From contig JAFGRY010000005.1 of NCBI GenBank assembly GCA_016934955.1, forward strand, positions 27,967 to 91,966: 64,000 nt of DNA. Direction: 5' to 3'. The notes beneath the pieces were generated by a model that ran no database searches, was not told the origin of the DNA, and saw only the letters and a list, made by a program, of their open reading frames with translations. The position numbers and the translations under genes were made by a program. Of this stretch, positions 46,263 through 61,949 are shown piece after piece (position 1 is the stretch's first letter; each line of letters starts with the position of its first letter). Source of the DNA: a bacterium. Its GTDB lineage: Bacteria > Zhuqueibacterota > QNDG01 > JAGLOF01.

Positions 46263-47561
46263 TTACATTCTCTTTATCACCATTAATGTGATATCATCGA
46301 ACTGTTCCTGCGTACCGGCGAAAAGGCCTATCTCTTTTATCACCTCGTCGACAATGTCATCCGCCTTTTTCACCCGCAGGCGCTTTGCCAGGTTCCAGAG
46401 CCTCTCTTCTCCATACTCCTCCTGCAGTTCATTTATCGCTTCCGTCACTCCGTCTGAATAGACAACCAGTACTTCCCCCGGCGCGAGCGTACAGGTATCT
46501 TCCGGATAGTCGAATTGTTCCAGCATGCTCAGGACAATACCGGCGGTACACAATTCCGTGTGCTCACCGTTTCCGCGGACGATAAAGGGCCGGTTGTGTC
46601 CGGCGTTAGCATACACGATGGAGTGTTCGTTCACATCGAGTATTCCATAGAACAGAGTTGCGAATTTGTTTGCCTCAGTATTTCGATACAGCAGCCGGTT
46701 GGAATGGTTGAGACATTCGCAGGGACATTGCACCAACAGCGCCTCCGTGCGGATAGTCGCCTGCAGATTGGACATCAGCAGGGCCGCCGGGATTCCCTTG
46801 CCGCAGACATCAGCGACACAGAAAGCGAGCCGGTGCTCATCGATGGAAATAAAATCGAAGTAGTCGCCGCCTACCGCTTTTGCCGGATAGCTCACCCCGG
46901 CGATGTCGTATCCGTTTATGGACGGAGCCGCTTTCGGCAGAAGGCGGGTCTGAATTTCAGCCGCCAGCCGATGCTCTTCCTGTATACGGGTAAGCATCTG
47001 CTCCTGTTCCAACAGACGGGCGTTTTCAATAACCTGCGCCGATTGAGCCGCGATAATGGACAGCAGCCGCTGATCTTCTTCGGAAAATCCCTCATCCCCT
47101 TTCTTGTTGAAACATGAAATCAGCCCCATCATCTTGCCCTTTTTAAACAGGGGAACGCACAGCAGCGATTTTACCTGGACACCGTCCCGCGGCATCGCCT
47201 GAAATCGTTCATCGGTCTGCAAATCGTTGACAAGGAGCGGTTGCCGGTGTTTCAGCATCCACCCGGTCAGCTGGGTGTCGAGCCGATAGGGGGCTGCAAC
47301 CCTGCTCTGATCCGCTTCCCTGATCATGGTCTGAAAGGGATTGTCCGATGCCTCCTCCCTCAGAATCATCACCGCCGCCTGTTCAACATGAAAATGCTTT
47401 ATACATTTTTTAATTATCAGCGTTTCGATGGTGCCCAGTTCCATTGTTGAAGAGATAGTCGTCGAAATTTCGTTGAGTATCGACAGTTCTTCCACTGCAC
47501 GTTTCAGACGGAGATTTTCCTGTTTTATCGAATCTTTGCTGTCAGGGGTATCGGCGCTCAT
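46263..47561 (-). CDS. GAF-domain PP2C/SpoIIE-family serine phosphatase (RsbU-like)
   Basis: The likely start is MSADTPDSK at 47561; the longer ORF-track N-terminus overlaps the PrsW gene. A GAF-like region (ILNEISTTISSTMELG..LLCVPLFKKGKMMGLI) precedes PP2C motifs (AVGGDYFDF, VADVCGKGIPAALLMS, ANAGHN, YSDGVTEA, FDDITLMV). Confidence 0.85.
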   Translation of the reverse strand: MSADTPDSKDSIKQENLRLKRAVEELSILNEISTTISSTMELGTIETLIIKKCIKHFHVEQAAVMILREEASDNPFQTMIREADQSRVAAPYRLDTQLTGWMLKHRQPLLVNDLQTDERFQAMPRDGVQVKSLLCVPLFKKGKMMGLISCFNKKGDEGFSEEDQRLLSIIAAQSAQVIENARLLEQEQMLTRIQEEHRLAAEIQTRLLPKAAPSINGYDIAGVSYPAKAVGGDYFDFISIDEHRLAFCVADVCGKGIPAALLMSNLQATIRTEALLVQCPCECLNHSNRLLYRNTEANKFATLFYGILDVNEHSIVYANAGHNRPFIVRGNGEHTELCTAGIVLSMLEQFDYPEDTCTLAPGEVLVVYSDGVTEAINELQEEYGEERLWNLAKRLRVKKADDIVDEVIKEIGLFAGTQEQFDDITLMVIKRM

Positions 47562-47614
47562 ATACACTCCGGTGATTGGGGTACGGTACCACATATAATC
47601 GCACAGGGGTTCCC

Positions 47615-48622
47615 TCATGCTTTTTTGACAAGATATATTTGCCACAAATCCCTGGTACTGGTATGAATCAGCGGGGCCAGCGCGATTTTGCCCGTTTTCC
47701 CGATAGCTTTCTCCAGGTATGCAAGTTCCTCCAGCTTCTTTTCCACTTCGACATCTCTGGCAATGCCGAACCCGGCACCCTGGGCAAGCAGAATTCCCTT
47801 GGCCCGGACAGCCAGCTCGAGATGAATCCTGAGGTAACAAAGCATATCCGCGAGGACCAAGCCCGTAAACCGTTCTCCCAGCGAATGAAGATACACTCCG
47901 ATATTCGTATCGGAAACACTTCCTTTGGTGATAATCTCCAGCGCGGTTACATCTGAATCCAATCCCTGTTCCAGCCACGCCCTCAGCAACACTTCACTTC
48001 TGGTGAATACCAAAATAAAGGCCAGCGGCATTAGAACGAGCTGAATGACGGTGATAAGCCTGGGATCAAGAATAAGATGATTGAAAAACGAATGAATAAT
48101 AATCGCTCCGGCCAGTCCCGGCAGAAAATGGTACAGCTGCACTCGTCCGCTTCTATCAGAAATGCTCTTTGCAGATATTGCCATGAGAGCTACCGTACCT
48201 CCATGCATCACCGCAGTGCCGAAACCGCGAATAATCCAGAGGAACATGCCTCCGGAGGGCAGATTGATAAGATATTCACTATTTTCAATCACCGCAAAAC
48301 CAGCCCCAACGGCAAAGCCGTAAATAGCGGCATCGACCATGAAACCAATCTTGTCATTTTTCAGTAAATAATACAGACAGCTTCCTTTTACCAGCTCTTC
48401 CAGAACAGGCGCGATCACCTGAGTATATACGGAGATAGGGATTCCGAATGTATTCAGGCTCCAGCTGGTAATGACATAGCAGGTGATTCCCGCGCCGCAT
48501 CCTGTAAGAACGAAGAACAGTACAGATCTCACCCGAACCAGCTTGTAACTGTCCAGGACAACGAGTGTCACCAGAAAAAACAGAACCGGGATCAGGCTTA
48601 TCCCCGCATCGGCGATTCCCAT
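47615..48622 (-). CDS. PrsW-family intramembrane metalloprotease with C-terminal cytoplasmic extension
   Basis: 335 aa with ~7 TM segments. PrsW-type motifs include PVLEELVKGS, FAVGAGFAVIENSEY, GFGTAVMHGG and IIHSFFNH. Its start codon overlaps the upstream stop by 1 nt (TAATG). Confidence 0.7.
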   Translation of the reverse strand: MGIADAGISLIPVLFFLVTLVVLDSYKLVRVRSVLFFVLTGCGAGITCYVITSWSLNTFGIPISVYTQVIAPVLEELVKGSCLYYLLKNDKIGFMVDAAIYGFAVGAGFAVIENSEYLINLPSGGMFLWIIRGFGTAVMHGGTVALMAISAKSISDRSGRVQLYHFLPGLAGAIIIHSFFNHLILDPRLITVIQLVLMPLAFILVFTRSEVLLRAWLEQGLDSDVTALEIITKGSVSDTNIGVYLHSLGERFTGLVLADMLCYLRIHLELAVRAKGILLAQGAGFGIARDVEVEKKLEELAYLEKAIGKTGKIALAPLIHTSTRDLWQIYLVKKA

Positions 48623-51570
48623 TATAATAATCTCAGTGAAACCATCACTTCTTTTGACGCATGTCGATCTTCAGCAAAAGCCCATGCATATCCGAGAGAA
48701 AGTGTGGACCGGAGTAATGAAAATGTCACCAGCCTCATATCCATCTGGCCACCCACACTCACATATCTTCCTGAAACAGCCTTGCTGTCAACATTGGTGA
48801 CCAGGACGGTGGAGAACAAGGCGAATCGGGCCCAACGGGCATAGAAACTTGGAGTACCCCATCGTTCGAACCGAACCGGCGGAAATGTCCATTCCACGGT
48901 GGTTTTCGCATAATTCGTCCCAGCAATAGCATTCAGTTCACATCCGGGGAAACTGTAATAACTGCGGTACCGTTGTATTCGCCGGTAATCCACCCAGTTA
49001 TTACCGAATCCACCGAAATAAAAGTTGGCGAAGGGCTCTCGCCTTTTCCCAATGGAATAGCCTGCTGAATTTCGAATCCAGATTGAAGAGTGATGCCAGG
49101 GCAGTAAAAAACCGACATCATGATTGAAATAAAAACGGGGGTACATGGTTCCGTTCACATAATTCAAGCTGGAGGCGATTTTCCAGGCGACCCCCTGCTC
49201 ATTGTTCACCGCGCCAAGAGAATTGAGCAGATTGGTATAATCCAGGCTGGCGCTGGCGCTCAGCAATTTATCATACGAGGCGTTGACATTCTGATAGTCG
49301 GGAAGCTTTTCAAGTCCCCCGTACCCCGCGGTCTGAAGGGAATACTGCAGTCTTCGCGGATTATCGTATATCAGATAATTGGAGTAGGCGATCCCCAGAG
49401 AATACCCTTTCCGGCTTGTCTTGGTCGGCCCGAACAGATCATAAAAATCGGTCCCGTTATATGTCCCGAAAACATTCACATTCCAGTGCTGGTAATCAAA
49501 ATTGGCATGCAGCCGCTCATCCTCGGGCAGCAGCCGGTTCGGCGTGTACAGTGCGGAAACATGCAGGGCATCGATGCCGCCCAGCGGATCCATCAGATCT
49601 ATCCGCATCCCATAGGCGGGAAATTCCTTGTATCCTTCCACCACCGGATAAATTGACGCCAATCTCAGACTCCCGAGACTTTTATATGCTCCAGCCGACA
49701 CGGCAAGGGTATCGAGACTGATCCTTTCAGGATTCGGAGGCTCCAGCGTCCAGGTCGTCAGTACAGGATGTTCGCGGAGGACTCTGTTCCCCAAGAGCGT
49801 GATCGAATCCACTTGACAGAGAGTATGTGGAATCAGCACGGGAGTGAATCCTTTCCCTGAATAGCGAAATACGAGCAGTGTATCAGGTGATATGACAAGG
49901 GGACGGAAAAAACCGGTCTCGCTGTTGCTGACGGGATAGGTCATTTTCTCCGCGAAATCATATCGGTATACATTGGAAACGCCGGTGTAGTACGAAGTGC
50001 CGTAAAGATATCTTCCATCAGGTGAAAAGACAAAATTCAAGGGTGAATTGCCCTCGAATTCCTCCAGCACCTCATAGTCCCGCTCGCCCCGCAGCAGATT
50101 TCGCATGTCGAACTTCACCAGACGCTGGTCTCCGTTGATTTCCGCCAGTGAGCCGCTCACCATGGTACCGTCGGGTGAAATATCAATATCGTACACATCC
50201 TTTCCATACGGCAGGGCAAGAATTTCCTGAAAGGAATCGTAGGGAGGCGGTATCCGCACCAGCGTTGAGTAGCCGTCGTGGTGACGCACACCCCAGATCG
50301 ATTCATCCGCTCCGTTCAGGGCCAGGTCCCCGATTCTCGCCTTTTTCATCAGCACCCTGCATTTGCCGGTGGACAGATCCACTGCATTGAGGCCTCGCCA
50401 CTGGGCGCTGTTGTGAGTAGTAAAATAGATCTCATCCGTGGACGAATTATAGACAAGTGATGTAACATAGTACAGACCGGGCGATGCCACATTGCAGATT
50501 TTATGGATACGGCCGGACTCCAGATCGATAGCGGCGATCTGAGAAATCTGCCCGGGATAATCGATCCCCATATATATTCTGTTCCTCTTTCTGTCCAGAC
50601 AGGCGTTGGAGACCGAGCCCAGCGGCTGCCGGCTGATGTTCCGGTACGGAGTCACCGGTTGTTGCCGGATAAATGCCAGGTTCTGCCGCTGCCATTCATG
50701 TTCCCATTGCACCCATTTTCGCCATTCTTCATCGAGACTGACGCTATATACGTTACTGAACTGCCGGGTAAAGTACCGCTTGCTGTCCCCGGTACGGTTG
50801 TACCACTTCAGGAGCTTATCGATTCCGTATCTATAGGCAAGATAACTGATGAATCGGGTTCCATACAAATATGAATTGATACCCATCTGAAAATCTATCG
50901 TTGTTCCTTCGGACTCGAGACCGACAACATCGTAAAAATGACTGGAGTCTCTGACCATTGACCGGAACACCATCTCATCATAGCCGTTCTGGGCTCTGCC
51001 AATTCCGCCGGACATCCAGGTCTCCATGAATACGGCAATGCCCTCATGATACCAGCGGGGTGAATACCAGCGGGGAGTGGTGAGATAACTGTACCACATG
51101 GACAGCGGATTTTCAGCCGTTGGATTCACTTTGCCGCTGAACAGCTTTCTAAATAAACGATCGGATGCCGCAGCTTTATCTGTAGCCAGGACATGCACCA
51201 GTTCATGATTCATTACCCAGTTCATGCGTTCATTCGCCGGGGACACCTCATACACATAATCATAAGGTTCGAGACCGATGTTGAGAAAATTCCAGGGGAT
51301 CGTATTGGTACCACCCGATCCATAATCATTGAAATCCTGCAGCAGTATCGTAACTTCTTCTGAAGGAGTATAATCAAACAGACGACGGTGGAATGAAAGC
51401 GAATTTTCAAAGCAACGGGCAATATGCGGAATGAATACTTCATGATTTTTGTCGTAATATATAAGGCGGAGGTTTTTTGTTCTCAACGAATAAAGCGGCA
51501 CCTGTGACCGGGCGCCGTTGTACATCAAAAGCAGCGAAAGCAGAATCATTACCCGGGGGAAACGGATCAT
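48622..51570 (-). CDS. Secreted fusion protein: Peptidase_MA-type zinc metallopeptidase + PD40/TolB-like beta-propeller + Omp85-like C-terminal beta-barrel
   Basis: The likely start is MIRFPRVMILLSLLLMYNGARSQ at 51570. A HELVH motif is followed ~50 aa later by WYHEGIAVFMETW. PD40-like strings are present (FSPDGRYLYGTSYYTGVSNVYRYD; ISPDGTMVSGS). The C-terminal ~350 aa are beta-strand-like, with FYFGGFGNNWVDYRRIQRY..AGTNYAKTTVEWTFP. Confidence 0.55.
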   Translation of the reverse strand: MIRFPRVMILLSLLLMYNGARSQVPLYSLRTKNLRLIYYDKNHEVFIPHIARCFENSLSFHRRLFDYTPSEEVTILLQDFNDYGSGGTNTIPWNFLNIGLEPYDYVYEVSPANERMNWVMNHELVHVLATDKAAASDRLFRKLFSGKVNPTAENPLSMWYSYLTTPRWYSPRWYHEGIAVFMETWMSGGIGRAQNGYDEMVFRSMVRDSSHFYDVVGLESEGTTIDFQMGINSYLYGTRFISYLAYRYGIDKLLKWYNRTGDSKRYFTRQFSNVYSVSLDEEWRKWVQWEHEWQRQNLAFIRQQPVTPYRNISRQPLGSVSNACLDRKRNRIYMGIDYPGQISQIAAIDLESGRIHKICNVASPGLYYVTSLVYNSSTDEIYFTTHNSAQWRGLNAVDLSTGKCRVLMKKARIGDLALNGADESIWGVRHHDGYSTLVRIPPPYDSFQEILALPYGKDVYDIDISPDGTMVSGSLAEINGDQRLVKFDMRNLLRGERDYEVLEEFEGNSPLNFVFSPDGRYLYGTSYYTGVSNVYRYDFAEKMTYPVSNSETGFFRPLVISPDTLLVFRYSGKGFTPVLIPHTLCQVDSITLLGNRVLREHPVLTTWTLEPPNPERISLDTLAVSAGAYKSLGSLRLASIYPVVEGYKEFPAYGMRIDLMDPLGGIDALHVSALYTPNRLLPEDERLHANFDYQHWNVNVFGTYNGTDFYDLFGPTKTSRKGYSLGIAYSNYLIYDNPRRLQYSLQTAGYGGLEKLPDYQNVNASYDKLLSASASLDYTNLLNSLGAVNNEQGVAWKIASSLNYVNGTMYPRFYFNHDVGFLLPWHHSSIWIRNSAGYSIGKRREPFANFYFGGFGNNWVDYRRIQRYRSYYSFPGCELNAIAGTNYAKTTVEWTFPPVRFERWGTPSFYARWARFALFSTVLVTNVDSKAVSGRYVSVGGQMDMRLVTFSLLRSTLSLGYAWAFAEDRHASKEVMVSLRLL

Positions 51571-51740
51571 CGTACATTTCCCCCTCTCTTTATCTATCGT
51601 GCGGAGAGCAGCCATATTTATCTCCCATTGGTGAGATACATGCGCAATCCGATTCTTTCAGTCTGATGAATGCACGAAAAGAACGTGGCCCGTTCCTTGA
51701 CAAAATAGATATATTCTTCCTGCCATGTGGAGATAGCACT

Positions 51741-51772
51741 CCGCGGAGGGGATGCAGTACTCCCCTCCGCGG
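51741..51772 (-). terminator. Perfect 12-bp GC-rich stem-loop downstream of the repeat-protein gene (terminator-like, no U tract)
   Basis: CCGCGGAGGGGA (51741-51752) and TCCCCTCCGCGG (51761-51772) are exact reverse complements with an 8-nt loop. The structure sits ~45 nt beyond the stop at 51818. Confidence 0.5.
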
Positions 51773-51817
51773 TTGCATCTTACGTCGTTTTGATGCATGT
51801 GTGCGACAAATACACTG

Positions 51818-53962
51818 CTATTGTATCGAACGGTCAGGATTCGTGGATCTCATCCGGTCCAGTGTCTCGGCTCTCTCAACGGGTTGCATTCTCGCCAGGG
51901 CGTCCGTCCGCTCGGGAATTGCCATCATTCCCAGCGTTTCAACACGAACAGGAAGGGACAGTCTGTCGAGGGTGAACGCCCGAATACCCGGAGCCATCTT
52001 CTCGAGGGAAAGCGCCCGTTCCGACAGCGGCAGTCGCTCCAGCACCAGCGCCCGGTCCGCTATGGCGAGTTTTTCCAGGGCCTCCACTCGTTTCTCAAGC
52101 GCCATCTGTCCCAGCACATCGGCTCTCTCAGGAAACGCCATTTTCTCAAGCGAAAAAACCCTGTTATTAATCGACATTTTCTCGAGCTCGCCGGCACGTT
52201 GTGGAAGCGATAATTTTGCCAGATCTTCATGGAATGCCGCTATACTGGCCATTTTCTCGAGAGTCTCTGTTCTAACTGCCGGAGCGAGCTTATCCAGCGT
52301 TTCTTCACGGAACATCTGAGCCATGCGGTCCAGCGTCTGAGCTCTTTTCTCAAGAGTCAGTTTCTCGAGTGAAGGAATACGATCTGAGATTGCCAGCTTT
52401 TCAAGCACGCCTGCACACTGAGCGACCGGCAGCCTTTCCAGTGTTTCGATCCGTAATTCCGGAGCCATTCTCTCAAGAGCTTCAAACCTTTCTTCTGACG
52501 CCATCTTTTCTAGAGAGAGGGCACGGTCCGGGAGCGATAGTCGGCTCAATGATTCGACCCGGATGGGAATCGACATCTTTTCCAGACTGAGATACCGCAC
52601 CGGCAGAGAGAGTTTCTCGAGCGATTCCACTCTCTTCGGCAATGAGAGTTTTTCCAGTGATTCCACTCTCGAGGCATCACTCATTCTCTCAAGGGCTTCG
52701 CTCCGCTCCACACTCTTCATCCTCTCCAGAGCGGGGATTCTTTGATCCAGTGCCAGTTTTTCCAGAGACAGCGCCCGTTCCCTCACTGCCATTTGCTGCA
52801 ATATATCGGTCCGGCTCTCAAGCGACATTCTTCCCAGACATTCAGCGCGAGGCTCCAACGCCATTCTTTCCAGGGTGGCCGTCTGCACCGGAAGGCTGAG
52901 TTTTTCAAGAGACGAAAGACGAACAGGAAGCGCGAGTCTCTCAAAGGTCAACGCCCGATCGGGCAGACTGAGCTTTTCCAGGGAACTGAAACGCTCTGCA
53001 TCAGCCATTTTTTCCAGAAACATGGTTCTTTGTGTGATCGCCATCCGTTCCAGACATTCATTTCTCAGCGGCAGTGACATCTTATCGAGCGTTGCAGCCC
53101 CGTCAGGCAGAGACAGTTTTTCCAGGGCATAGGTCCGTTCGATCGGTGCCAGTTTTTCCAGGGTCGCCGCTCTTTCTTCAGGAGCCAGTTTTTCCAGACT
53201 CGTCTGATCGGCTTCCAGCCGCTTCATTCTTTCCAGAGTCTCGGTTTTTATCGCCGGGGCCAGTCTCTCCAACGATTCAGCCTGTATGGCCTTTGCCATG
53301 CAATCCAGTGTCAGTGCCCGTTCGGTCGGTGCCATCTTCTGCAAAACGTCCATCCGGTCAGCAGGTGCCATCATTTCCAGGGTTTCCGTACGCCTGGAAA
53401 CGGCCATCTGTTCCAAGTACGGCGAGAGCGGACGAGCGATGCTCATCTTCTCGAGAGTGGACAGCCGTTCTTCCAGGGCCATTTTTTCCAGGGTGAGCAC
53501 CTGATCGGGAAGAGCCAGTTTCTGCAGGATATCAATTCTTTCCGGAAGCGCCAGTTTTTCAAGTGTAAGGGCTCTCTCGACAGGCACCATCCGGGCAAGA
53601 GCCTCATCCCGCTGCGGTACAGCCATTTTCATGAGAACCGCGGCACGATCCTGACTGGACATGCGCCCCAGCTCCTCGGCCCGCTCGGGGGCTGCCATCT
53701 TTTCCAGAGACTCCGCATACTCTTTCAGTGATACGATCTGCGTCGTCTCATCGGTGTGAATGCTTTTGATCACAACGTCAGCGTCGGTAATCTGTTCAGC
53801 ACGAAATTTTTCTGCTTTTTTTGCGCCACCGATGGTACCGCTGACTTCAAGTGACTTGGGCCATGGATAAATCGCCGCTAAATACACCACAACAATAATG
53901 GCCACGACTGACACACCGACAATCAGTCCCCACTGCCGTTTGTTTCTTTCATTCTTACTCAT
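51818..53962 (-). CDS. Membrane-anchored periplasmic protein composed of ~50 tandem 12-residue repeats (unknown family)
   Basis: 714 aa. The start is preceded by GGAAGGAGGAACACC. A basic N-terminus and one TM (WGLIVGVSVVAIIVVVYLAAIY) come first. An uninterrupted LEK[LM]xxPxRxxx array then runs to the C-terminus. Confidence 0.7.
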   Translation of the reverse strand: MSKNERNKRQWGLIVGVSVVAIIVVVYLAAIYPWPKSLEVSGTIGGAKKAEKFRAEQITDADVVIKSIHTDETTQIVSLKEYAESLEKMAAPERAEELGRMSSQDRAAVLMKMAVPQRDEALARMVPVERALTLEKLALPERIDILQKLALPDQVLTLEKMALEERLSTLEKMSIARPLSPYLEQMAVSRRTETLEMMAPADRMDVLQKMAPTERALTLDCMAKAIQAESLERLAPAIKTETLERMKRLEADQTSLEKLAPEERAATLEKLAPIERTYALEKLSLPDGAATLDKMSLPLRNECLERMAITQRTMFLEKMADAERFSSLEKLSLPDRALTFERLALPVRLSSLEKLSLPVQTATLERMALEPRAECLGRMSLESRTDILQQMAVRERALSLEKLALDQRIPALERMKSVERSEALERMSDASRVESLEKLSLPKRVESLEKLSLPVRYLSLEKMSIPIRVESLSRLSLPDRALSLEKMASEERFEALERMAPELRIETLERLPVAQCAGVLEKLAISDRIPSLEKLTLEKRAQTLDRMAQMFREETLDKLAPAVRTETLEKMASIAAFHEDLAKLSLPQRAGELEKMSINNRVFSLEKMAFPERADVLGQMALEKRVEALEKLAIADRALVLERLPLSERALSLEKMAPGIRAFTLDRLSLPVRVETLGMMAIPERTDALARMQPVERAETLDRMRSTNPDRSIQ
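51863..53707 (-). repeat. Degenerate 36-nt (12-codon) in-frame tandem repeat array, ~50 copies
   Basis: Example units are LEKLSLPDRALT, FERLALPVRLSS, LEKLSLPVQTAT, LERMALEPRAEC and LGRMSLESRTDI. On the plus strand this appears as recurring ttttccag / tttctcgag strings. Many shadow ORFs are open in all plus-strand frames. Confidence 0.9.
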
Positions 53963-54067
53963 GGTGTTCCTCCTTCCCGTTTATAATACGATGGTGCACA
54001 TTCTCGTAACACTAACAATACAGCTTCACCGCGAATATGTTGTTACCGATTCCAATTGTTTCAGGCG

Positions 54068-54859
54068 TTAGTGTAGATCATCGAGCGATATCGTCTTCGA
54101 GATGATTACATCCCCCCCTTTCTGTATGTCAAGACGTATTTCCTGCCTGGAGAACGACATTCCTTTAAAAAGAATGAGGCACCTGTACCTGCCGAACGCG
54201 CTAAAAGCTGTGCGATCGACGGTTTTCACAAACGAAAGTCCGGCAGTATCGGGTGACGACACTCCGAAAAAATTGATCGCCTGCGGATTATAGGAAAAGG
54301 TAAGTGTCATCGGTGATGCAGCATCTATATCTACCGTGAACCCGATAATAGTATCGTGAATGCTTGCATCTATGGCCCCGGTAATCCGGTCTTCGTTCAG
54401 TGTCTGAGAAAACAGCGGCTTGAATCCTCCCGATCCATGCAGGCCCACGGTACCCAGAAAATCGTCAGTGACCGGCGCATACTGATCCTCAGCGATCGGC
54501 GCGATAAGTATCAGCATGACTCCGACCGCAACTCCAGCCGTGAACGTAACCACCCGAGCGGGTGAAAAGAGCCGGCTGAATCCGTTGACGGCAGTTTTCT
54601 TACCCGAGGCGGTCGATCGCGCTGCATAGCGGTTGGTATCAATGGAGTTCATGATGGTTTTTATCAAATTGTCGGAAGGATCGGGAGTCGACATCCGGGA
54701 GAGGGTACGGGAGATGGTAAGCTGATGAGTATATTCCCTTTTAGCCTCGGAGTGTCCGGCTGTATAGGAGTCGAGCCATTTTTTCTCGTGGTCCGAAAGG
54801 CCTTGCTCAATCTCCTTTGCCAGCAGTTTTTTAAACCGTCTCTTCGACATATTCTGCAT
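54068..54859 (-). CDS. Putative single-pass membrane anti-sigma factor
   Basis: 263 aa. Its start overlaps the ECF sigma gene end by 20-29 nt (ATG 54859 or 54850). It has a helical N-terminal ~90 aa, one TM (VVTFTAGVAVGVMLILIAPIA), and a ~140-aa extracytoplasmic domain. No zinc HxxxCxxC motif is present. The call rests mainly on position and topology. Confidence 0.5.
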   Translation of the reverse strand: MQNMSKRRFKKLLAKEIEQGLSDHEKKWLDSYTAGHSEAKREYTHQLTISRTLSRMSTPDPSDNLIKTIMNSIDTNRYAARSTASGKKTAVNGFSRLFSPARVVTFTAGVAVGVMLILIAPIAEDQYAPVTDDFLGTVGLHGSGGFKPLFSQTLNEDRITGAIDASIHDTIIGFTVDIDAASPMTLTFSYNPQAINFFGVSSPDTAGLSFVKTVDRTAFSAFGRYRCLILFKGMSFSRQEIRLDIQKGGDVIISKTISLDDLH

Positions 54860-55403
54860 ACCCCTTTTCTATACAGTATTTCCTGATCACTTGCCGGGCC
54901 GAGAAAAGGCGGGACTTCACTCTCTTCTCCGGGATATCCATGATATAAGCAATATCCGCATAGGGCAGTTCGATAAAATATTTCAGGACAATCACTGCTC
55001 TGTATATAGTATCCAGAGAATCTATTGCCGCATGGAGAATGCGGTCACGTTCCCAGGTTTCCACCATCTCGGCGGGCGACCGCCCGGATCCCGCCTGTTC
55101 ATGCTCCAGTGTTCCTGTTTTACAGTTTCGTTCTGCAAAGTTCAGTGCTTCATTGACTGCGATACGGTAGATCCAACTGAAAAACTTATATGTCTGCTTG
55201 TATCGACCGAGATTCTCATACACTTTCAGAAAGACCGACTGGGCAATATCCTCGGCATCATTATAATTATGAACAATCCCGAAGACCAGTTTAAATACCT
55301 GTCGCTGGTACCGTTCAACCAGTATCCTGAACGTTTCCGTGTCACCCTGTAGACAGCGCCGGACACATTCTCTATCAGTCAGTTCTGTCATAAATACAGG
55401 CAC
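54831..55403 (-). CDS. ECF-type (group 4) RNA polymerase sigma-70 family factor
   Basis: 190 aa. Region 2 reads FRILVERYQRQVFKLVFGIVHNYNDAEDIAQSVFLKVYENL..WIYRIAVNEALN. Region 4 reads RAVIVLKYFIELPYADIAYIMDIPEKRVKSRLFSAR. There is no region 3. Confidence 0.9.
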   Translation of the reverse strand: MPVFMTELTDRECVRRCLQGDTETFRILVERYQRQVFKLVFGIVHNYNDAEDIAQSVFLKVYENLGRYKQTYKFFSWIYRIAVNEALNFAERNCKTGTLEHEQAGSGRSPAEMVETWERDRILHAAIDSLDTIYRAVIVLKYFIELPYADIAYIMDIPEKRVKSRLFSARQVIRKYCIEKGYAEYVEETV

Positions 55404-55428
55404 CTTGAAAAAAAGTTGGTCATCGGTG

Positions 55429-55716
55429 TTACCGGTCAGCTATTGAAAAAATCAAGTCGAATCCGGCATAATGGAAAATATCCCGGATATGGTCAGTGAG
55501 ATTGATCAGTTTCAATTCACTGCCGCTTTCCTTGAGCCGTTTCTGGGTTGCCAGCAGCACCCCCAATCCACTGCTGGAGATATATTCCAGCGTGGCAAAA
55601 TCGACGGTTGCGGTTTCCGATACCCGGTCGAACATCTCCAGTGCATACGCTTCCCTGCTGGCGTCAAACCGACCCTCCAGAATCAGCAGATCCTTTTCAA
55701 TGGTGATCTGAAACAT
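55429..55716 (-). CDS. STAS-domain anti-sigma-factor antagonist (RsbV/SpoIIAA-like)
   Basis: 95 aa. The conserved region VDFATLEYISSSGLGVLL contains the phospho-acceptor Ser. It overlaps the upstream kinase gene by 20 nt. Confidence 0.85.
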   Translation of the reverse strand: MFQITIEKDLLILEGRFDASREAYALEMFDRVSETATVDFATLEYISSSGLGVLLATQKRLKESGSELKLINLTDHIRDIFHYAGFDLIFSIADR

Positions 55717-56131
55717 AGGTATTCTCCAGATTTTTTCTCAGGGTGATTATGCTGCGCCTGTTCTCATAGTGGTAATCAACCTCATCCATCAGTTTATGGA
55801 TCAGGGGGATGCCGAGCCCTCCTACTCTCCTCTCCTCTATTTTCTTTTTGAAGTTATATGGCTCGCGCATACGGATATCGAAACGGTCCACATCAGTATC
55901 GATGAGGGTGATCACCAGGACATCCTTATCGCGCACAAGTGATATCGATACCGGATTGTGATTGTTCTTCACATATTTTACCGAGTTGGTAAAGAGTTCC
56001 TCCACTGCAAGATTGACGGCGAACACCGTCCTGGCATCCAGTTCGGCGGTGTGCGCAAATGCATCGATCAGAAGGTTGATATGTTCGAGCGATTCCATGG
56101 TGCGGGGGAACGATGCTGAGACTGATGCCAT
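55697..56131 (-). CDS. Anti-sigma regulatory factor, RsbW/SpoIIAB-like serine protein kinase (HATPase_c_2)
   Basis: 144 aa. The N box reads AVEELFTNSVKYV and the G2-like region GGLGIPLIHKLMDEVDY. Size and layout are typical of partner-switching kinases. Confidence 0.8.
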   Translation of the reverse strand: MASVSASFPRTMESLEHINLLIDAFAHTAELDARTVFAVNLAVEELFTNSVKYVKNNHNPVSISLVRDKDVLVITLIDTDVDRFDIRMREPYNFKKKIEERRVGGLGIPLIHKLMDEVDYHYENRRSIITLRKNLENTYVSDHH

Positions 56132-56791: not shown

Positions 56792-59128
56792 TCAATGTTT
56801 TGCGGGAAAATTCATTTTTTGTATCAATTCCTGAAAGCGCGGTTCATCACGCAGCAGATCCCATTTGGGATCGACATTGAGATACACCAGATCCTGCATC
56901 CGCTCCTCCCAGGCAACCTCCAGCCAGTCCAGGGCCCGCTCGGTATCCTCGGCATATGCATAGTAGGCGGCAATGGACAGCGAGTGAGCACGGTTGGAAC
57001 GGGCCTCCAGGGCCTGTGCCACCCGGCGCATGGCTTCCCGGTACCCGCCTTCGCGGTACCCCTGATTGAGGGCGTTGAGAAGATCATCAGAGCCCTTTAT
57101 CTCATATACATTTCGTCTTACGGCAAGCGCTTCGGTGTCATTCCCTCTGAATTGATAGCATTGCGCCAGGTTGCCGAGAGCATCGGTAAAATCGGACTGA
57201 AGTGCGATACTCTCTTTATACTGCTCGATGGCTAGATCATAGCGGCGGGAACGCTTGTATACCTGCCCCAGATAGGCCTGATGCATGGCATTCATCGGAT
57301 CCAGCTGAATGCCTGCTTTCATCTGGGCCTCAGCCTCTTCAAACCGTCCCATTCCGGTCAGGAACAGCCCGTAAAAGATCCGCGCCTGGGCATAATTCGC
57401 ATTAAGCGTCAATGCCTTTTTAAACTCCTCTTCAGCCTTCTCCCAGTCAAATAAATACCAGGTGGCAAACCCCGCCATGCCGTAATGGCCCTCAGCTAGT
57501 GTGCTGTCCAGCTCAAGACAACTTTCCACAGCTGCCTTCCAGTTCGGCATAATCTGCCTGGGAAGCATTCCAAAATATGTCATCGCAGCCCAATACATCG
57601 CAATACCGTGATATGCCGGAGCATAATCCGGATCCTTTTGCAGGGCCAGCTCAAAATATCCCCGTGACAATTCAAGATCCTGTCTGGAGAATTTATTCCA
57701 GTGGAACCGGCCTTTCAGCAAGGCTTCATAAGCATCAGGATCAACCTCCCTTGATCTGGTGAGGCGTTGTTTTTCTTTCTCCGTAACGGTAACGGTGGTA
57801 TTGTGAGCAATCTCCAGTGCCAGCTCGCTGTACAGGTTCAGAACATCACACCTGGCCCGCCTGTAGGTATCTCCCCAGATATTTCGCTCCACCGGGAGCG
57901 CATCGATCAACTGAAGCCGGATGCGGACGGTGTCACCGGCTTCGTAGACCGTGCCCTCCACCAGGGCATCCACTTTCAGCTCCCGGGCGATCTCGGGCAG
58001 AGATTTTACGGTGGTCTTGTACCCCATAATCGATGTCCGTGAGATGATCCGTTTGAATCCCTGAATCTGACCCAGCTGGCCGATCAGCTCATCGGTTACA
58101 CCGTCCGCAAAAAATTCCTTGTCCGGATCACCGGTCATGTTTTTCAGCGGCAGCACCGCAATGGATTCAATCGCATCGGCCCGGCCAGTGCATAGATGAA
58201 TCCCTGACACAGAGAGAATAACAGCAAGCACGGTGAAACTCGTATAGAGGATGACTCTTTTTCTTCTCCGCAGTTTCGCCTTCCTCAGCCGGGACTGAAT
58301 ATCGTCCGGCATGATCCCGGCGTTGATCGACTGCAGATCCTCCAGCAGCTTTTGCATTGTCTGGTAGCGTGCATCAGGACTTTTTTCCAGCGCTTTGCAG
58401 ACCAGCTGCTCCAGCGATTCGGGAATATCCGGATTGACCCGGGAGACCGCTTTCGGCTCTTCATTCAATATTGAATACATCACCGCCTGCTCGTAATCGC
58501 CCCTGAAGGGCCGCTCGCCGGTGAACATCTCGTAGAGGATGACGCCCAGGGCCCAGATGTCCGTGCGATGATCCACCTCCGTGCCCTGCATCTGCTCCGG
58601 CGACATGTAGCCGATGGTGCCCAGGGTCGTGCCCGCCCTGGTCAGCAGGCTGCGGTCGGACAGCTTGGCCAGGCCGAAATCGACGATCTTGACCGTGCCG
58701 TCCCCGGTGATGAGGATATTGGCCGGCTTGATGTCGCGGTGCACGATGCCTTTGGTGTGGGCCTTATCCAACCCCCTGGCGATCTGGACGGCGATCTCCA
58801 TCGCATCCTCAACCGGCAGCGGGCCCCGGCTTATTCTATCCTTTAAGGACTCGCCCTCATAACAGGCCATGGCAATATAGAGCTGACCGTCCTCGCTCTC
58901 ATTGATCTCATAAACGGTGCAGATATTGGGATGATCCAGGGCCGAGGCTGCCTTCGCTTCGTGAATGAAGCGCTGCTTGTCCTCCGGGGATTGGCTCAGA
59001 TGGGGCGGCAGAAACTTGAGGGCCACGAAACGGTCCAGTTTAATGTCAATTGCTTTGTAGACCGTGCCCATCCCGCCGCGGCCTAGTTCTTCGATGATTT
59101 TGTAATGAGATATGGTTTTGCCGATCAT
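56792..59128 (-). CDS. Ser/Thr protein kinase with TM segment, TolB-N-like extracytoplasmic domain and TPR repeats (paralogue 1)
   Basis: The likely start is [26 protein letters not shown] at 59128; the ORF-track extension overlaps the upstream gene. Kinase motifs include [17 protein letters not shown] and [13 protein letters not shown] segment ([16 protein letters not shown]) is followed by [22 protein letters not shown] and then TPR-like repeats. Confidence 0.9.
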
Positions 59129-59237
59129 ACGCCATTTCTCACGAAGGCCTTGCGGGATATCGCGTCCCGATACTTCTGGAAAGTACCGCCGCTGGCGTGA
59201 TTTCCCAGGATCGTGTGAAGGTGAACCGCCATGCCTG

Positions 59238-61949
59238 TCACGGTGCGCCCCTCCCTGTGCCGCCGACATGACCCGGCTGTGTCCCGGATCTGTCCGCAGC
59301 CGGGGCGGATTCACTGATTTTCCCGGTCTCTGCCGGCGCGTTTGTATCGCTCTGCACACCGCCCCTGGCCAGCAACGCCTGGAACTTCGGATGATTTCTG
59401 AGAGGGTCATACAGCGGATCAAGCCGCAGGATCTGTGCGGTGATCACTTTAGGAACCTCCGGTGAGAGAAGAAAGTCCAGCTTTTCCAGGGCATCTTCAT
59501 ATCTGCCGACCATCACATACACCTGAGTCAGGGCAATCAGCGGATACATCCCTCGCAATGCGTCAGCAGAAAGCGGAAGAAGGTCTACAGCCCGCTCAGC
59601 TTCCCGTACGGCCTCGTCCGGCTGGCCAAGACCGGCATAGGCAATTCCCAATGCGCTGTAAAGCCGGTCATCGTCCGGATTTTTATTGATTTGTGACAGG
59701 AGGAACGACCGGGCGGAATCGAATGAAGCAACCGATTTCTCTTTGTCATCCAGCAACCGGTAAATCAGCCCCCGGAGTAAAAATACCGGAGTGATGGAAT
59801 ACTGGTACTCATAGGAATTTTCGGCAACCCGGTCCAGACGTTCGAGGGCCGCAGTGTATGTGCGTTCATACATATCCAGCCAGGCCAGATGCGCCCACGG
59901 CTTTATATCGGACTGAATACGATCGAGATCGTTACGGCTTTCTTTTGTATCTCCGGATCGGAGCAAATCGATATCCGCCTTCCGGATGTAGGGCCACACC
60001 GGTTCGGAAGAGAGCGCAATATAGCGATCGAAATACGTCTCGGCTTCAGAAAACCTGCCAAGCCAGGATAACGTTACGCCGATCTCATAAAGTGTGTTCA
60101 GATTTTTCGGATCGAGTTCAAAGCCCTTTTTCTGCTTCTCCAGTGCCTGCGCGAATTTCCCCTGCCTTCTCCAGATATAGGCCACAGCCGTCAGAATTCG
60201 ACTGCTGTTCGGTAACCGCTTTTCAGCAATGGCAAATGATCTCAGTGCTTGCGGGTAATTCCGGAATCCGAAATAATAATAAATACCCAGCACATAGTAG
60301 GCTTCGGGCATATCACTTTGCAGAGCGAATGCCCGGTCCAGGGCCGCCTTTGCCGCGGATAGCCGCTCCTGGGACCGGTCGAATCCAAACCAGTAGTATC
60401 TCAAATGTGCTGTAGAAAGAGAGAGATAGGCAAGTACAAAAGTAGAATCCAGCTCGACTGCGCGTTGACACAACTCGATCCGTTTTTCCATTCCGGAGCG
60501 TTCATAGATTGAAACTGAGAGACACTGCAGATAGGCCTGGTATGCATCCAGATTCTTTGTCGGGATCATGGCCAGGCTCAGTCTCTCTGTTTCATTCAGA
60601 ACGATATCCAGCGATTTCACGACCTGGGTGGCAATATCCGTTTGTATGGCAAAGATATCCTCCATCGTCCGATCCATGTTACCGGCCCAAAGCTGTACAT
60701 CATCCGTCACCTGAATAAGCTTGGGTGTGATCCGGATCCGGCCCAGGTTACCGGATTTCACCCAGCGTATCGTTCCCTCGAGTACATAGTCAACACCCAG
60801 TTCTTTGGCGATGACGGGAAGGGGCTTCGATGACTTTTTATAGTGTTCGGCACTGGTCCGGGAGATGACGCCGAGATTGCGGACCGAGCTCAGGCGCGAC
60901 GTGATTTCTTCAGTGAGTCCATCGGCAAAATACTCATCCTCCGCCGGCCCCAGGTTCTCAAACGGGAGAACGGCGATCATTTTCAATCGGTGCGTCTCTT
61001 CCTTCCCGGGCTGGAACAGGAAATATCCGAGTAAAACCAGTACAATCAGAACCGCGGGGACTCCATATCGCAGAAGCCTCCGTCTGTTTTGTTCGTGTTT
61101 CGCGTCGTGCCGTCCGGGTAATCCCTCCGGGAGAGTGCCGGTCTGGAGAGCGATCAAATCATCGAGGAAATCCGCCATGGTGGCATAGCGGGTATCAGGT
61201 TCCTTTTCCAGTGCCCTGCACACGATCCCCTCAAGAAAAGGAGGAAGATCCGGACGCAGATCAGCCATGACTCCGGGTTCCTCGTTGAGAATCGAGTAGA
61301 TCACCGCCTGCTCGTAATCCCCCTTGAAGGGCCGCTCTCCAGTGAGCATCTCAAAGAGGATGACTCCCAGGGCCCAAATGTCCGTCCTCTGATCGACCGC
61401 GTCTCCCCGTGCCTGCTCAGGCGACATATAGGCGACCGTTCCCAGGGTGGTCCCCTCTTTGGTCAGGAGGCTGCGGTCGGCCAGCTTGGCCAGGCCGAAG
61501 TCGACGATCTTGGCGGTCCCGTCCTCGGTGATGAGGATATTGGCCGGCTTGACATCCCGGTGCACAATGCCCTTGGCGTGAGCTTTGTCCAGCCCCCGGG
61601 CGATCTGAACGGCGATGTCCATGGCATCTTTCACGGGCAGAGGGCCCCTGCTGATTCTATCCTTAAGGGACTCACCCTCGTAGCAGGCCATAGCGATGTA
61701 GAGCTGTCCCTCTTCGCTCTCGTTGATCTCGTGGATGGTGCAGATGTTGGGATGGTCAAGGGCCGAGGTGGCCCTGGCTTCGTGAATAAATCGCTTTTTA
61801 TCCTCGGCGGATTGACTGAGATGGGCGGGCAGGAATTTCAGGGCCACAAAGCGGTCGAGCCTGGTATCCTGCGCCCTGTAGACCGTGCCCATGCCGCCGC
61901 TACCAATCATTTCGAGGATCTTATAATGAGATATTTCTTTCCCTATCAT
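59238..61949 (-). CDS. Ser/Thr protein kinase with TM segment, TolB-N-like domain and long TPR region (paralogue 2)
   Basis: 903 aa. The kinase domain is visibly highly similar to paralogue 1 (HRDVKPANILI, DFGLAK, GTVAYMSPEQ). A TM segment (VPAVLIVLVLLGYFLF) is followed by IAVLPFENLGP..FADGLTEEI and many TPR-like repeats. The tail is low-complexity. Confidence 0.9.
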   Translation of the reverse strand: MIGKEISHYKILEMIGSGGMGTVYRAQDTRLDRFVALKFLPAHLSQSAEDKKRFIHEARATSALDHPNICTIHEINESEEGQLYIAMACYEGESLKDRISRGPLPVKDAMDIAVQIARGLDKAHAKGIVHRDVKPANILITEDGTAKIVDFGLAKLADRSLLTKEGTTLGTVAYMSPEQARGDAVDQRTDIWALGVILFEMLTGERPFKGDYEQAVIYSILNEEPGVMADLRPDLPPFLEGIVCRALEKEPDTRYATMADFLDDLIALQTGTLPEGLPGRHDAKHEQNRRRLLRYGVPAVLIVLVLLGYFLFQPGKEETHRLKMIAVLPFENLGPAEDEYFADGLTEEITSRLSSVRNLGVISRTSAEHYKKSSKPLPVIAKELGVDYVLEGTIRWVKSGNLGRIRITPKLIQVTDDVQLWAGNMDRTMEDIFAIQTDIATQVVKSLDIVLNETERLSLAMIPTKNLDAYQAYLQCLSVSIYERSGMEKRIELCQRAVELDSTFVLAYLSLSTAHLRYYWFGFDRSQERLSAAKAALDRAFALQSDMPEAYYVLGIYYYFGFRNYPQALRSFAIAEKRLPNSSRILTAVAYIWRRQGKFAQALEKQKKGFELDPKNLNTLYEIGVTLSWLGRFSEAETYFDRYIALSSEPVWPYIRKADIDLLRSGDTKESRNDLDRIQSDIKPWAHLAWLDMYERTYTAALERLDRVAENSYEYQYSITPVFLLRGLIYRLLDDKEKSVASFDSARSFLLSQINKNPDDDRLYSALGIAYAGLGQPDEAVREAERAVDLLPLSADALRGMYPLIALTQVYVMVGRYEDALEKLDFLLSPEVPKVITAQILRLDPLYDPLRNHPKFQALLARGGVQSDTNAPAETGKISESAPAADRSGTQPGHVGGTGRGAP

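Follow-up and report, generated by a model that had tools for sequence, protein, structure and literature searches.

The window, by which we mean the whole 64,000-nt stretch of DNA that was analysed, contains an open reading frame on the minus strand (51818-53962) for a 714-aa protein that starts MSKNERNKRQ. The gene, its parts and its neighbours are listed below from high to low window coordinates.

55697-56131, minus strand: RsbW-like kinase
55429-55716, minus strand: STAS anti-sigma antagonist
54831-55403, minus strand: ECF sigma factor with Sigma70_r2 and r4_2 domains
54068-54859, minus strand: RsiW-like single-pass anti-sigma factor, 263 aa, the upstream neighbour, with a beta-rich outer domain of its own
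53933-53962, minus strand: basic, cytoplasmic N-terminal stub of the 714-aa protein, residues 1-10 (MSKNERNKRQ; four K/R, one E)
53864-53932, minus strand: single transmembrane (TM) helix, a signal anchor, residues 11-33, assigned by hydropathy and by homology to the TM helix of fused anti-sigma factors
53771-53848, minus strand: conserved juxtamembrane motif EVSGTIGGAKKAEKFRAEQITDADVV, residues 39-64 (family consensus GTIGG.KKYRSEQI.D.DV)
53708-53770, minus strand: non-repetitive linker between motif and array, residues 65-85
51821-53707, minus strand: array of 52 MgtE_N-type units, residues 86-714, each a 10-residue helix and a 2-residue turn
52601-52670, minus strand: adjacent unit pair LEKLSLPKRVES / LEKLSLPVRYLS, 85% identical in DNA
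48622-51615, minus strand: 997-aa secreted protein with an invariant HExxH, strictly co-conserved, the downstream neighbour
47615-48622, minus strand: PrsW-family intramembrane protease
46263-47618, minus strand: GAF-SpoIIE (PP2C) phosphatase, a partner-switching input (start as in the 451-aa gene call on L001)

The sigma factor passes the ECF superfamily model only, with SigW among the best sub-threshold models, and the PrsW match is likewise at family level only (Pfam, 66.6 bits; NCBIfam equivalog, 21.8 bits against a cut-off of 225). The 997-aa HExxH protein belongs to no named family; it has a weak Omp85-like C-terminus, and PDB searches with the single sequence and with a profile gave beta-propeller hints only. 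A promoter and terminator scan returned counts at chance level and was uninformative on transcription units. PADLOC found no defence-system match, its one MTase_II match being without a qualifying stretch.

The initial annotation had described a single TM segment directly after MSKNERNKRQ, and this holds. Residues 11-33 are the lone hydrophobic segment of the protein, with four K/R ahead of it; the top 19-residue Kyte-Doolittle window scores 3.05 at residue 13, and there is no second hydrophobic segment. Because the TM helix starts at residue 11, no room is left for the N-terminal cytoplasmic sigma-binding (anti-sigma) domain found in RsiW-type class I anti-sigma factors. Within the juxtamembrane motif, G42, G45, Q57 and D62 are invariant in an alignment of 47 sequences.

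Residues 86-714 form 52 consecutive units of 12 residues, including three 13-mers, in agreement with the earlier estimate of about 50. Residue identity is 0.355 at lag 12, whereas lags other than multiples of 12 give 0.02-0.12. The unit is strongly patterned: M or L occupies position 4 in all 52 units, L position 1 in 51, K or R position 3 in 46, A or S position 5 in 44, R position 9 in 42 and E position 2 in 34, followed by T or S at position 12 (31 of 52), E or D at position 8 (24), A at position 10 (19) and P at position 7 (17). D, E, K and R make up 33% of the array, with a net charge that is roughly neutral. The 36-nt period reported for the DNA was reproduced as well (lag-36 identity 0.478 against a background of ~0.22). 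The accompanying claim that all three opposite-strand frames are open was not, as these frames contain 15, 10 and 15 stops and have longest open stretches of 217, 166 and 152 codons. The opposite strand is merely stop-poor (40 stops, compared to 57 +/- 5 in codon-order shuffles). The 85% DNA identity between LEKLSLPKRVES and LEKLSLPVRYLS marks one recent unit duplication.

The array had been assigned to no nameable family and thought only faintly reminiscent of MgtE-N/FliG motifs, whose units were taken to be longer than an unusually short 12-residue period. All three statements need revision. Pfam MgtE_N (PF03448) matches the array in 12 stretches (E=2.2e-27, 96 bits against a curated gathering cut-off of 25.9), and MgtE N-domains are themselves built of 12-residue helix-turn units. 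Although a PDB search with the single protein sequence gave no match, a profile of the array searched against all PDB sequences retrieved MgtE N-domains only (2.9e-9 to 1.2e-5), then FliG. The match is clear in family and fold, and the unit is not new. The transporter model TIGR00400 reached 31.4 bits against a cut-off of 232.75, matching at N-domain positions alone, and LED_rpt matched weakly (19 bits against a cut-off of 59). DUF3106 (PF11304) is absent from the matches of the 714-aa protein at E<=10. Among its homologues, P0002, P0003 and P0016 reach 20-22 bits with that family, below its cut-off of 24.3, and L021 reaches 45.6 bits.

AlphaFold was run on alignments of array segments taken from exhaustive-search matches, from which spurious low-complexity segments (TTTEDLTTT, YRYCVPVTVTAL and LRR-like segments) had been filtered. 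A 9-unit model (pLDDT 97.0) superposed in Foldseek on the MgtE N-domains 8gps, 8gpv, 2zy9, 5x9h and 2yvx with TM 0.73-0.79 and RMSD 1.5-2.4 A over 93-100 columns. A 26-unit model (pLDDT 93.2) consists of 26 consecutive 10-residue helices, in line with the helical rod proposed from the sequence. The longer model found no global match in the PDB and none at E<=1e-3, its best global TM being ~0.25; generic solenoids alone were returned, so that by Foldseek the MgtE relation is visible only with a domain-sized (9-unit) piece. The best global matches, HEAT, ARM and Pumilio, are elongated superhelical helix stacks like the model, but build each 34-42-residue repeat from two or three helices and fit poorly (TM 0.22-0.28, RMSD 14-18 A), so the geometry differs. 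On these predictions, it is largely established that 52 helix-turn units of the MgtE-N type form one unbroken alpha-solenoid, which makes up the extracytoplasmic part. A rough estimate from packing and volume puts the rod at 12-17 nm, and it may span the periplasm, as the initial annotation had suggested.

The same unit (e.g., LLASMSxEERAKL) occurs in arrays of ~30-45 copies in giant eukaryote-like proteins (such as P0014, P0011 and P0005), and in an exhaustive search arrays of this type aligned to 450-600 residues of ours at 24-28% identity. Unlike the 714-aa protein, these uncharacterised arrays are embedded in multi-domain proteins and have no TM anchor, GTIGG motif or sigma context, and they probably expanded independently.

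The repeats themselves are a poor handle for homologues: a word-indexed search with the full-length protein produced 8000 candidates, none at E<=1e-5, as repeat words saturate the index. The same search with a profile of the anchor gave just 18 short unnamed fragments. Scanning genomes for the anchor with an 8-sequence alignment recovered 30 genome loci, all in Ignavibacteria/Bacteroidota MAGs, and 10 further loci came from unlabelled metagenome contigs. In total, 107 distinct proteins bear the motif GTIGG.KKYRSEQI.D.DV, which defines a family without a name in Pfam, NCBIfam or the source records. We define the family by a TM helix with GT[IV]G..[KR]..[x]Q[IM].D.DV no more than ~10 residues behind it and a tandem-repeat tail after that, and by a gene placed between the ECF sigma/anti-sigma genes and those for the HExxH protein and PrsW. 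The 714-aa protein and its gene fit this pattern in both respects, and its tail is the longest of the 107. While the anchor is constant, the tails are hypervariable between lineages, with periods of 8, 9, 12, 16, 27 and 45 residues and lengths from ~100 to 644 residues. Within one lineage the length is near-constant (430-435 aa in L034 and L037-L039). A repetitive tail is kept in all full-length members, implying that the tail matters in its own right.

About one third of the loci encode a fusion in which an RsiW-like sigma-binding domain precedes the anchor and repeat tail. This order (N-terminal domain, TM, motif, tail) is shown by 10 or more genome loci and by 10 or more database proteins, and a profile of the N-terminal domain best matches RsiW (5wuq, E=6.5e-8). 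The split architecture of the window, with a separate anti-sigma factor and repeat protein, recurs in at least 10 loci. Several features connect the two forms. The TM helix of the 714-aa protein is homologous to that of the fused anti-sigma factors, and TM helix and motif together are 44-55% identical to fused forms such as P0024. The 263-aa anti-sigma factor matches a fused form over the latter's N-terminal domain (E=7e-5) and carries a reduced juxtamembrane motif, DDFLGTVG; the separate anti-sigma factors hold a reduced copy, D-[LI]-x-G-T-[IML]. It is largely established that, its missing sigma-binding domain apart, the 714-aa protein is paralogous to an RsiW-like anti-sigma factor in its TM and outer part.

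The fused forms also bear on topology. They place the TM, motif and tail after a cytoplasmic RsiW-like domain, and since this puts the tail behind the sigma-binding domain across one TM, the array lies outside the cytoplasm. The positive-inside rule agrees, and the extracytoplasmic location that had been proposed on that rule is upheld. That the protein is a single-pass inner-membrane protein with its N-terminus in and its C-terminus out is largely demonstrated; because the host is a diderm, we infer that the array faces a periplasm.

Gene order was conserved across the 40 loci found by way of the anchor (30 from genomes, 10 from metagenomes). Wherever the contig reaches, it reads RsbW-like kinase, STAS protein, ECF sigma factor, RsiW-like anti-sigma factor, repeat gene, ~1000-aa HExxH protein and PrsW, and the last two are adjacent in every locus that extends far enough. 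The linkage of homologues to sigma/anti-sigma genes is therefore one of strict synteny, reinforced by gene fusion. The initial annotation had read a sensor or scaffold role from the position of the gene after the sigma/anti-sigma pair. The synteny and the fusions sustain the functional link; the specific mechanism, be it gate, sensor or spacer for PrsW, we infer.

The cluster resembles the RsiW/PrsW/sigma-W system of Bacillus subtilis in bringing together an ECF sigma factor, a single-pass anti-sigma factor and a PrsW-family protease. Like RsiW, the 714-aa protein has a single TM pass, an extracytoplasmic C-terminal part and a gene that adjoins an ECF sigma gene, and in the fused homologues an RsiW-like protein has the repeat tail as its outer domain. 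Unlike RsiW, the 714-aa protein has no sigma-binding domain. The one alignment that was inspected pairs the cysteines of RsiW with consensus residues other than cysteine. In the sigma-W literature searched we found no description of a repeat tail, a GTIGG motif, a co-encoded ~1000-aa HExxH protein or an RsbW/STAS/SpoIIE set, and we know of none for sigma-W. What sets off the site-1 cleavage of an anti-sigma factor by a PrsW-type protease is as yet poorly understood, the sigma-W system included. Alkaline, salt, antimicrobial and phage stress lead to the destruction of RsiW by PrsW, RasP and ClpXP, acting in that order (PMC5358783).

The fusion to an RsiW-like sigma-binding domain ties the array to PrsW-type proteolytic control of a sigma factor. 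We favor, with moderate confidence, the hypothesis that the ECF sigma factor is switched by PrsW-dependent regulated proteolysis and that the 714-aa protein serves this switch as its outward-facing gate or sensor module. The juxtamembrane motif would be the probable recognition element for PrsW or for the co-encoded HExxH protein, and the charged rod projecting from the membrane would shield this site. The rod would then be lost or destabilized, and the site exposed, under envelope stress or once the HExxH protease trims it. Alternatively, the rod protein and the anti-sigma factor may be rival substrates of the protease, which would set an activation threshold. In genomes of the fused type one polypeptide would do both jobs, and in the present genome two paralogues would share them. 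As the cluster also has a complete RsbW/STAS/SpoIIE partner-switching set, proteolysis may not be the main route by which the sigma factor is controlled.

A different possibility is that the rod is a passive structural spacer or tether that links the inner membrane with either the peptidoglycan or the ~1000-aa protein, taken to be associated with the outer membrane. It would then fix a distance or position and have no role in sensing or in the proteolytic control of the sigma factor. Free variation of tail sequence, period and length among lineages over an unchanged anchor would be expected of a spacer, and the periods of 8-45 residues are as compatible with a loosely constrained spacer as with a specific sensor. 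The near-constant 430-435 aa within one lineage would suit a ruler, the protein with the weak Omp85-like C-terminus is always encoded by the next gene, and the periplasmic MgtE_N-type proteins FlgY, FlbB and MotE are structural scaffolds (PMC13023049). However, a range of ~100 to 644 residues is too wide for a fixed envelope distance, and genomes that carry the tail within the anti-sigma factor itself are hard to square with a purely structural role. We consider a passive spacer unlikely.

Less likely again is a decoy, that is, an anti-sigma factor stripped of its sigma-binding domain, whose sole effect is to keep PrsW or the HExxH protease occupied and so spare the genuine anti-sigma factor. 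The absence of that domain, the TM helix and motif held in common with the fused anti-sigma factors, the reduced motif on the neighboring anti-sigma factor and the recurrence of the split architecture would all be consistent with titration. A folded rod of 52 units would be needless for this purpose, and full-length members would not be expected to keep a repetitive tail throughout. The decoy also overlaps with the gate or sensor explanation and is not strictly exclusive of it.

The MgtE_N match in sequence and fold raises the prospect of a cytoplasmic divalent-cation sensor like the MgtE N-domain, with the opposite topology and the array inside the cell. The MgtE N-domain (PF03448; 8gps, 2yvx/2zy9) indeed has the same family and fold, with one short helix per ~12 residues. 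It comprises ~8-10 such helices, is cytoplasmic, and is joined to CBS and channel domains in a layout of N-domain, CBS pair and five-helix channel, whereas the 714-aa protein has 52 helices, neither a CBS domain nor an MgtE channel domain, and a single N-terminal TM helix. Its array sits on that one TM, would be periplasmic, and is encoded in a sigma/anti-sigma/PrsW cluster. The basic N-terminal stub favors N-in, and the sigma-binding domain of the fused homologues must be cytoplasmic, so that a single TM puts the tail outside. A cytoplasmic cation sensor is thus highly improbable.

MgtE_N-type domains are known outside the cytoplasm from the flagellar proteins FlgY, FlbB and MotE (COG3334), which are anchored by an N-terminal TM or signal peptide (PMC13023049), and about two thirds of FlgY homologues share with the 714-aa protein an N-terminal TM followed by a periplasmic MgtE_N-type domain (PMC13023049). 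These E-ring proteins have a coiled-coil stalk and a small head in 172-264 aa and genes that adjoin fliJ/fliK (PMC13023049). The 714-aa protein has 52 helices, an array many times longer, and no long coiled-coil helix leading to a small head, and flagellar genes are absent from the window cluster and from all 40 loci, so a role in scaffolding the flagellar motor is scarcely credible.

Repetitive genes are commonly misassembled, and the stop-poor opposite strand might suggest a spurious reading frame. An artefact of either kind is nevertheless very improbable, since the 714 codons of the coding frame run on without an internal stop (10-38 in the other five frames), the units are on average just 48% identical in DNA (maximum 72%), the longest exact internal repeat is 16 nt, the fold is confidently predicted, the 40 loci have orthologous genes in the same slot, and a separate Logan contig, from run SRR13394437 and possibly the same sample as the window, carries the identical gene with 16.9 kb of identical flank. 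The concern that the repeat number had been inflated in assembly is accordingly unlikely to be justified.

The unit belongs to the known MgtE_N family; the 52-unit anchored rod in a sigma/PrsW cluster is undescribed in the literature searched. Our searches found no description of long MgtE_N arrays, the GTIGG anchor or the sigma/anti-sigma/HExxH/PrsW cluster, and Ignavibacteria and MgtE are both absent from the main text of the ECF reclassification paper. On the predictions, a stack of MgtE N-domain helix-turn units can grow about five-fold and still form a confidently predicted rod, one without a solved global analogue; this matters for repeat-protein structure and design. The rod would be a second setting, after the flagellar E-ring, for this normally cytoplasmic fold outside the cytoplasm. 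Because the anchor family and the ~1000-aa HExxH protein are both without names or family models, the annotation of Ignavibacteria genomes would gain two definable families.

More tentatively, and with considerable doubt, the GTIGG-anchored repeat tails may represent a previously unrecognised class of anti-sigma sensor domain, in which fast-evolving, periplasm-crossing solenoid rods reach an outer-membrane-associated HExxH protease and have their integrity or length read by PrsW-dependent proteolysis. If so, the cluster would be a trans-envelope sensor of mechanical or chemical integrity, and the 52-helix rod would be the most extreme form of that sensor and the first case in which it is split into two proteins. 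The cluster offers a natural series of outer domains, varied in repeat type and number over a constant anchor and protease pair, in fused and split form, and thus a ready-made test set for whether such a domain acts as a shield, a ruler or a ligand sensor.

The position, length and N-terminus of the repeat-protein gene agree with the initial annotation:

51818-53962, minus strand, repeat protein ORF, 714 aa, N-terminus MSKNERNKRQ

Its sole hydrophobic segment spans residues 11-33, with four K/R residues ahead of it, as expected for the single TM helix that had been proposed. From residue 86 to the C-terminus, we parsed 52 units (previously estimated at about 50), each of 12 residues except for three 13-mers. 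Self-identity of the array is 0.355 at lag 12, 0.25-0.33 at multiples of 12 and 0.02-0.12 at other lags, and the unit profile reads L1 (51/52), E2, K/R3, M/L4 (52/52), A/S5, x, P7, E/D8, R9 (42/52), A10, x, T/S12. The resulting rod is 33% charged, with a net charge near neutral. The 36-nt period described for the DNA was recovered (lag-36 identity 0.478 vs ~0.22). The opposite-strand frames, described as open, are not: they contain 15, 10 and 15 stops, slightly fewer (40) than in codon-shuffled controls (57 ± 5).

The units, which the initial annotation could not assign to a family, belong to Pfam MgtE_N (PF03448; E=2.2e-27; score 96 bits, cut-off 25.9; 12 stretches). MgtE joins this N-domain to CBS and channel domains, whereas neither was found after the array (TIGR00400, 31 bits against a cut-off of 232.75). 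When all PDB sequences were searched with a profile of the array and filtered array segments from database matches (A5), MgtE N-domains ranked first (8gps, 2.9e-9; 2yvy, 1.4e-8; 2yvx; 8gpv; 2oux), followed by FliG alone (2e-3 to 0.09). AlphaFold2 with A5 modeled residues 256-567 (pLDDT 93.2, pTM 0.78) as 26 consecutive helices, nearly all of 10 residues with 2-residue turns between them, such that one helix equals one unit. A 9-unit piece (residues 256-363; pLDDT 97.0, pTM 0.87) matches solved MgtE N-domains with TM 0.73-0.79 and RMSD 1.5-2.4 Å over 93-100 columns, with FliG ranking below. For the 26-unit rod, the search of PDB structures returned no match at E≤1e-3 and no global counterpart; the best matches were Pumilio, PP2A-A and importin (TM ~0.25, RMSD >14 Å). 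Given the MgtE_N matches and the lack of a global PDB counterpart, the unit and its local fold are already known, and the five-fold extension into a single rod, as modeled, has no solved analogue. We estimate a rod length of 12-17 nm from residue volume and helix packing only.

The exhaustive search also returned giant eukaryote-looking proteins (P0005, P0011, P0014, P0009) with 30-45-unit MgtE_N-type 12-mer arrays, such as the roughly 40 copies of LLASMSxEERAKL in P0014. These arrays are uncharacterised, lack a membrane anchor and sigma context, and probably expanded independently; the long-array architecture is therefore recurrent.

That the array size is an assembly artefact, a concern raised in the initial annotation, is unlikely because the units share 48% mean DNA identity (72% maximum), the longest exact repeat is 16 nt, and only one neighboring pair, the only tandem DNA repeat TRF detects within the gene, looks recently duplicated:

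52601-52670, adjacent 36-nt unit pair, 85% identity

This pair is a sign of unit duplication still going on in an otherwise old, diverged array. A Logan contig of run SRR13394437, possibly the source of the window itself, carries the same gene, identical in sequence along with 16.9 kb of flank. Together with the diverged units and the confident fold model, this excludes an artefactual gene for practical purposes.

Full-length homology to the repeat protein is almost absent: a word-indexed search yielded no homologues, and an exhaustive HMMER search gave 154 proteins at E≤1e-3 and 0 at E≤1e-30. What is conserved is the anchor, a TM helix followed by GTIGG.KKYRSEQI.D.DV, with G42, G45, Q57 and D62 invariant in 47 sequences. 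Scanning GTDB species genomes for the motif yielded 30 loci, every one of them in a MAG of Ignavibacteria, 'Chlorobiaceae' or Bacteroidota. When metagenomes were scanned with the N-terminus of the repeat protein itself, 10 further loci were recovered at 32-48% identity, with no close relative among the matches. The closest anchor relative, L033, has the same 3-residue motif insertion as the window.

The tails of 107 distinct motif-bearing proteins are all repetitive, with differing units and periods (8, 9, 12/24/36, 13, 15, 16, 26-27, 34-35, 40 and 44-45 residues). The 12-mer tails themselves vary by genome (ADVQRLADIART, APVDMQASLLKS, MDANQKATLITD, LDAAARLxAYxx); among those tested, the MgtE_N cut-off is exceeded by L012, L015, L018 and L021 and narrowly missed by L003 and L037. 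Other helical repeats occur as well, for example the STI1/HOP DP-like tail of L023. As L033, with the nearest anchor, carries a 9-mer tail unlike the window's 12-mer, tails are replaced and not just resized. Orthologous slot genes with other repeats on the anchor are:

L033:883-1596, 9-mer ANREFAALL
L035:2641-4248, 27-mer
L017:9998-11329, 16-mer KYVPAENQKYVLEAAM
L008:9701-10870, 8-mers

Within-array identity in these genes of up to 0.83 indicates recent tail expansion and replacement. One lineage is nearly constant in length (430-435 aa in L034 and L037-L039). The window's tail is the longest of the 107, at 644 residues past the motif (runner-up 465). The tails are hypervariable compared to the neighboring ~1000-aa protein, which has 65% mean column identity across 18 orthologues.

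As far as contigs extend, gene order is identical in every genome and metagenome locus: RsbW-like kinase, STAS, ECF sigma, anti-sigma factor, anchor-bearing gene, ~1000-aa protein and PrsW. The proposed linkage to the sigma/anti-sigma pair thus holds across about 40 loci. Genes in and around the cluster include:

48622-51615, minus strand, HExxH protein, 997 aa, secreted, strictly co-conserved
56792-59422 and 59238-61949, minus strand, large Ser/Thr protein kinases with TPR tails, also in L007, L009, L016, L017, L019, L020 and L023

The ~1000-aa proteins of the loci match the window's at E=0, and H137-E138-x-x-H141 is invariant in the 18 orthologues. Weak PD40, Omp85_2 and Peptidase_M1 matches were obtained, and no Pfam/NCBIfam family or solved relative in a PDB search; the protein probably represents an uncharacterised envelope metalloprotease family. 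Ser/Thr kinases frequently flank the cluster, and their recurrence suggests additional regulatory input. In the window, a GAF-SpoIIE phosphatase and a second STAS gene come after the cluster. At 47615-56131 and in L002-L041, an ECF sigma lies beside both PrsW with an RsiW-type anti-sigma factor in the membrane and a complete cytoplasmic partner-switching set (RsbW-like kinase, two STAS proteins and GAF-SpoIIE phosphatase), an arrangement conserved in about 40 loci; two control systems on one ECF sigma would be unusual.

The slot between the ECF sigma and the ~1000-aa protein holds one of two architectures. In the split form (the window plus 10 or more loci), a ~260-aa anti-sigma factor precedes an anchor protein with its TM helix near the N-terminus. 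In the fused form (10 or more loci in genomes and 10 or more proteins in databases), a single protein carries a ~100-aa N-terminal domain, then the anchor's TM helix, motif and repeat tail. In L006, L026 and L029, calls of standalone type place the motif at residues 69-76 and are apparently fused forms cut short at the start. At L004:9116-11101, the mechanical 661-aa call extends across the sigma gene in a different frame; the true start almost certainly lies near 9700 and gives a ~460-aa anti-sigma factor of the fused type. An N-terminal domain profile built from both forms matched B. subtilis RsiW best in the PDB (5wuq, E=6.5e-8, 69 residues), with RskA second, and the window's anti-sigma factor aligns to one fused form (E=7e-5). 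Separate anti-sigma factors carry the motif in reduced form, D-[LI]-x-G-T-[IML], 10-15 residues past the TM helix (DDFLGTVG in the window). The RsiW-like domain, fused forms and reduced motif make the cluster a sigma-W/RsiW/PrsW-type module, in which the repeat protein is a paralogue of the anti-sigma factor's membrane and outer part, without the sigma-binding domain.

The array is predicted, with good support, to be extracytoplasmic, as the initial annotation proposed, because the N-terminal stub is basic and because the sigma-binding domain of fused forms, one TM helix before the array, must be cytoplasmic. In B. subtilis, RsiW is degraded by PrsW, RasP and ClpXP, in that order, upon alkaline, salt, antimicrobial or phage stress (PMC5358783). 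By analogy, and with moderate support, the repeat protein may participate in PrsW-type regulated proteolysis of the anti-sigma factor. The juxtamembrane motif, the best-conserved element and common to both paralogues, is the natural candidate for the recognition site of PrsW or the HExxH protein. The rod might shield this site until destabilised or trimmed; alternatively, the rod-bearing protein might act as a competitor that sets the activation threshold. A purely structural tether to the outer-membrane-associated protein is a less likely alternative, and a pure decoy, a narrower form of the proteolysis model, is less probable still. A flagellar E-ring role fails on gene context and architecture, and an MgtE-like cytoplasmic sensor on domain content and topology.

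Both the MgtE_N unit and the ECF sigma/RsiW-like anti-sigma/PrsW signaling logic are already known. No family model, source name or paper turned up for the GTIGG anchor family, a fast-evolving tandem-repeat solenoid as anti-sigma outer domain, the split into two proteins, the HExxH protein with its strict linkage or the 52-helix MgtE-N-type rod. The finding would be of greater interest were the rod shown to do the sensing in a trans-envelope device.
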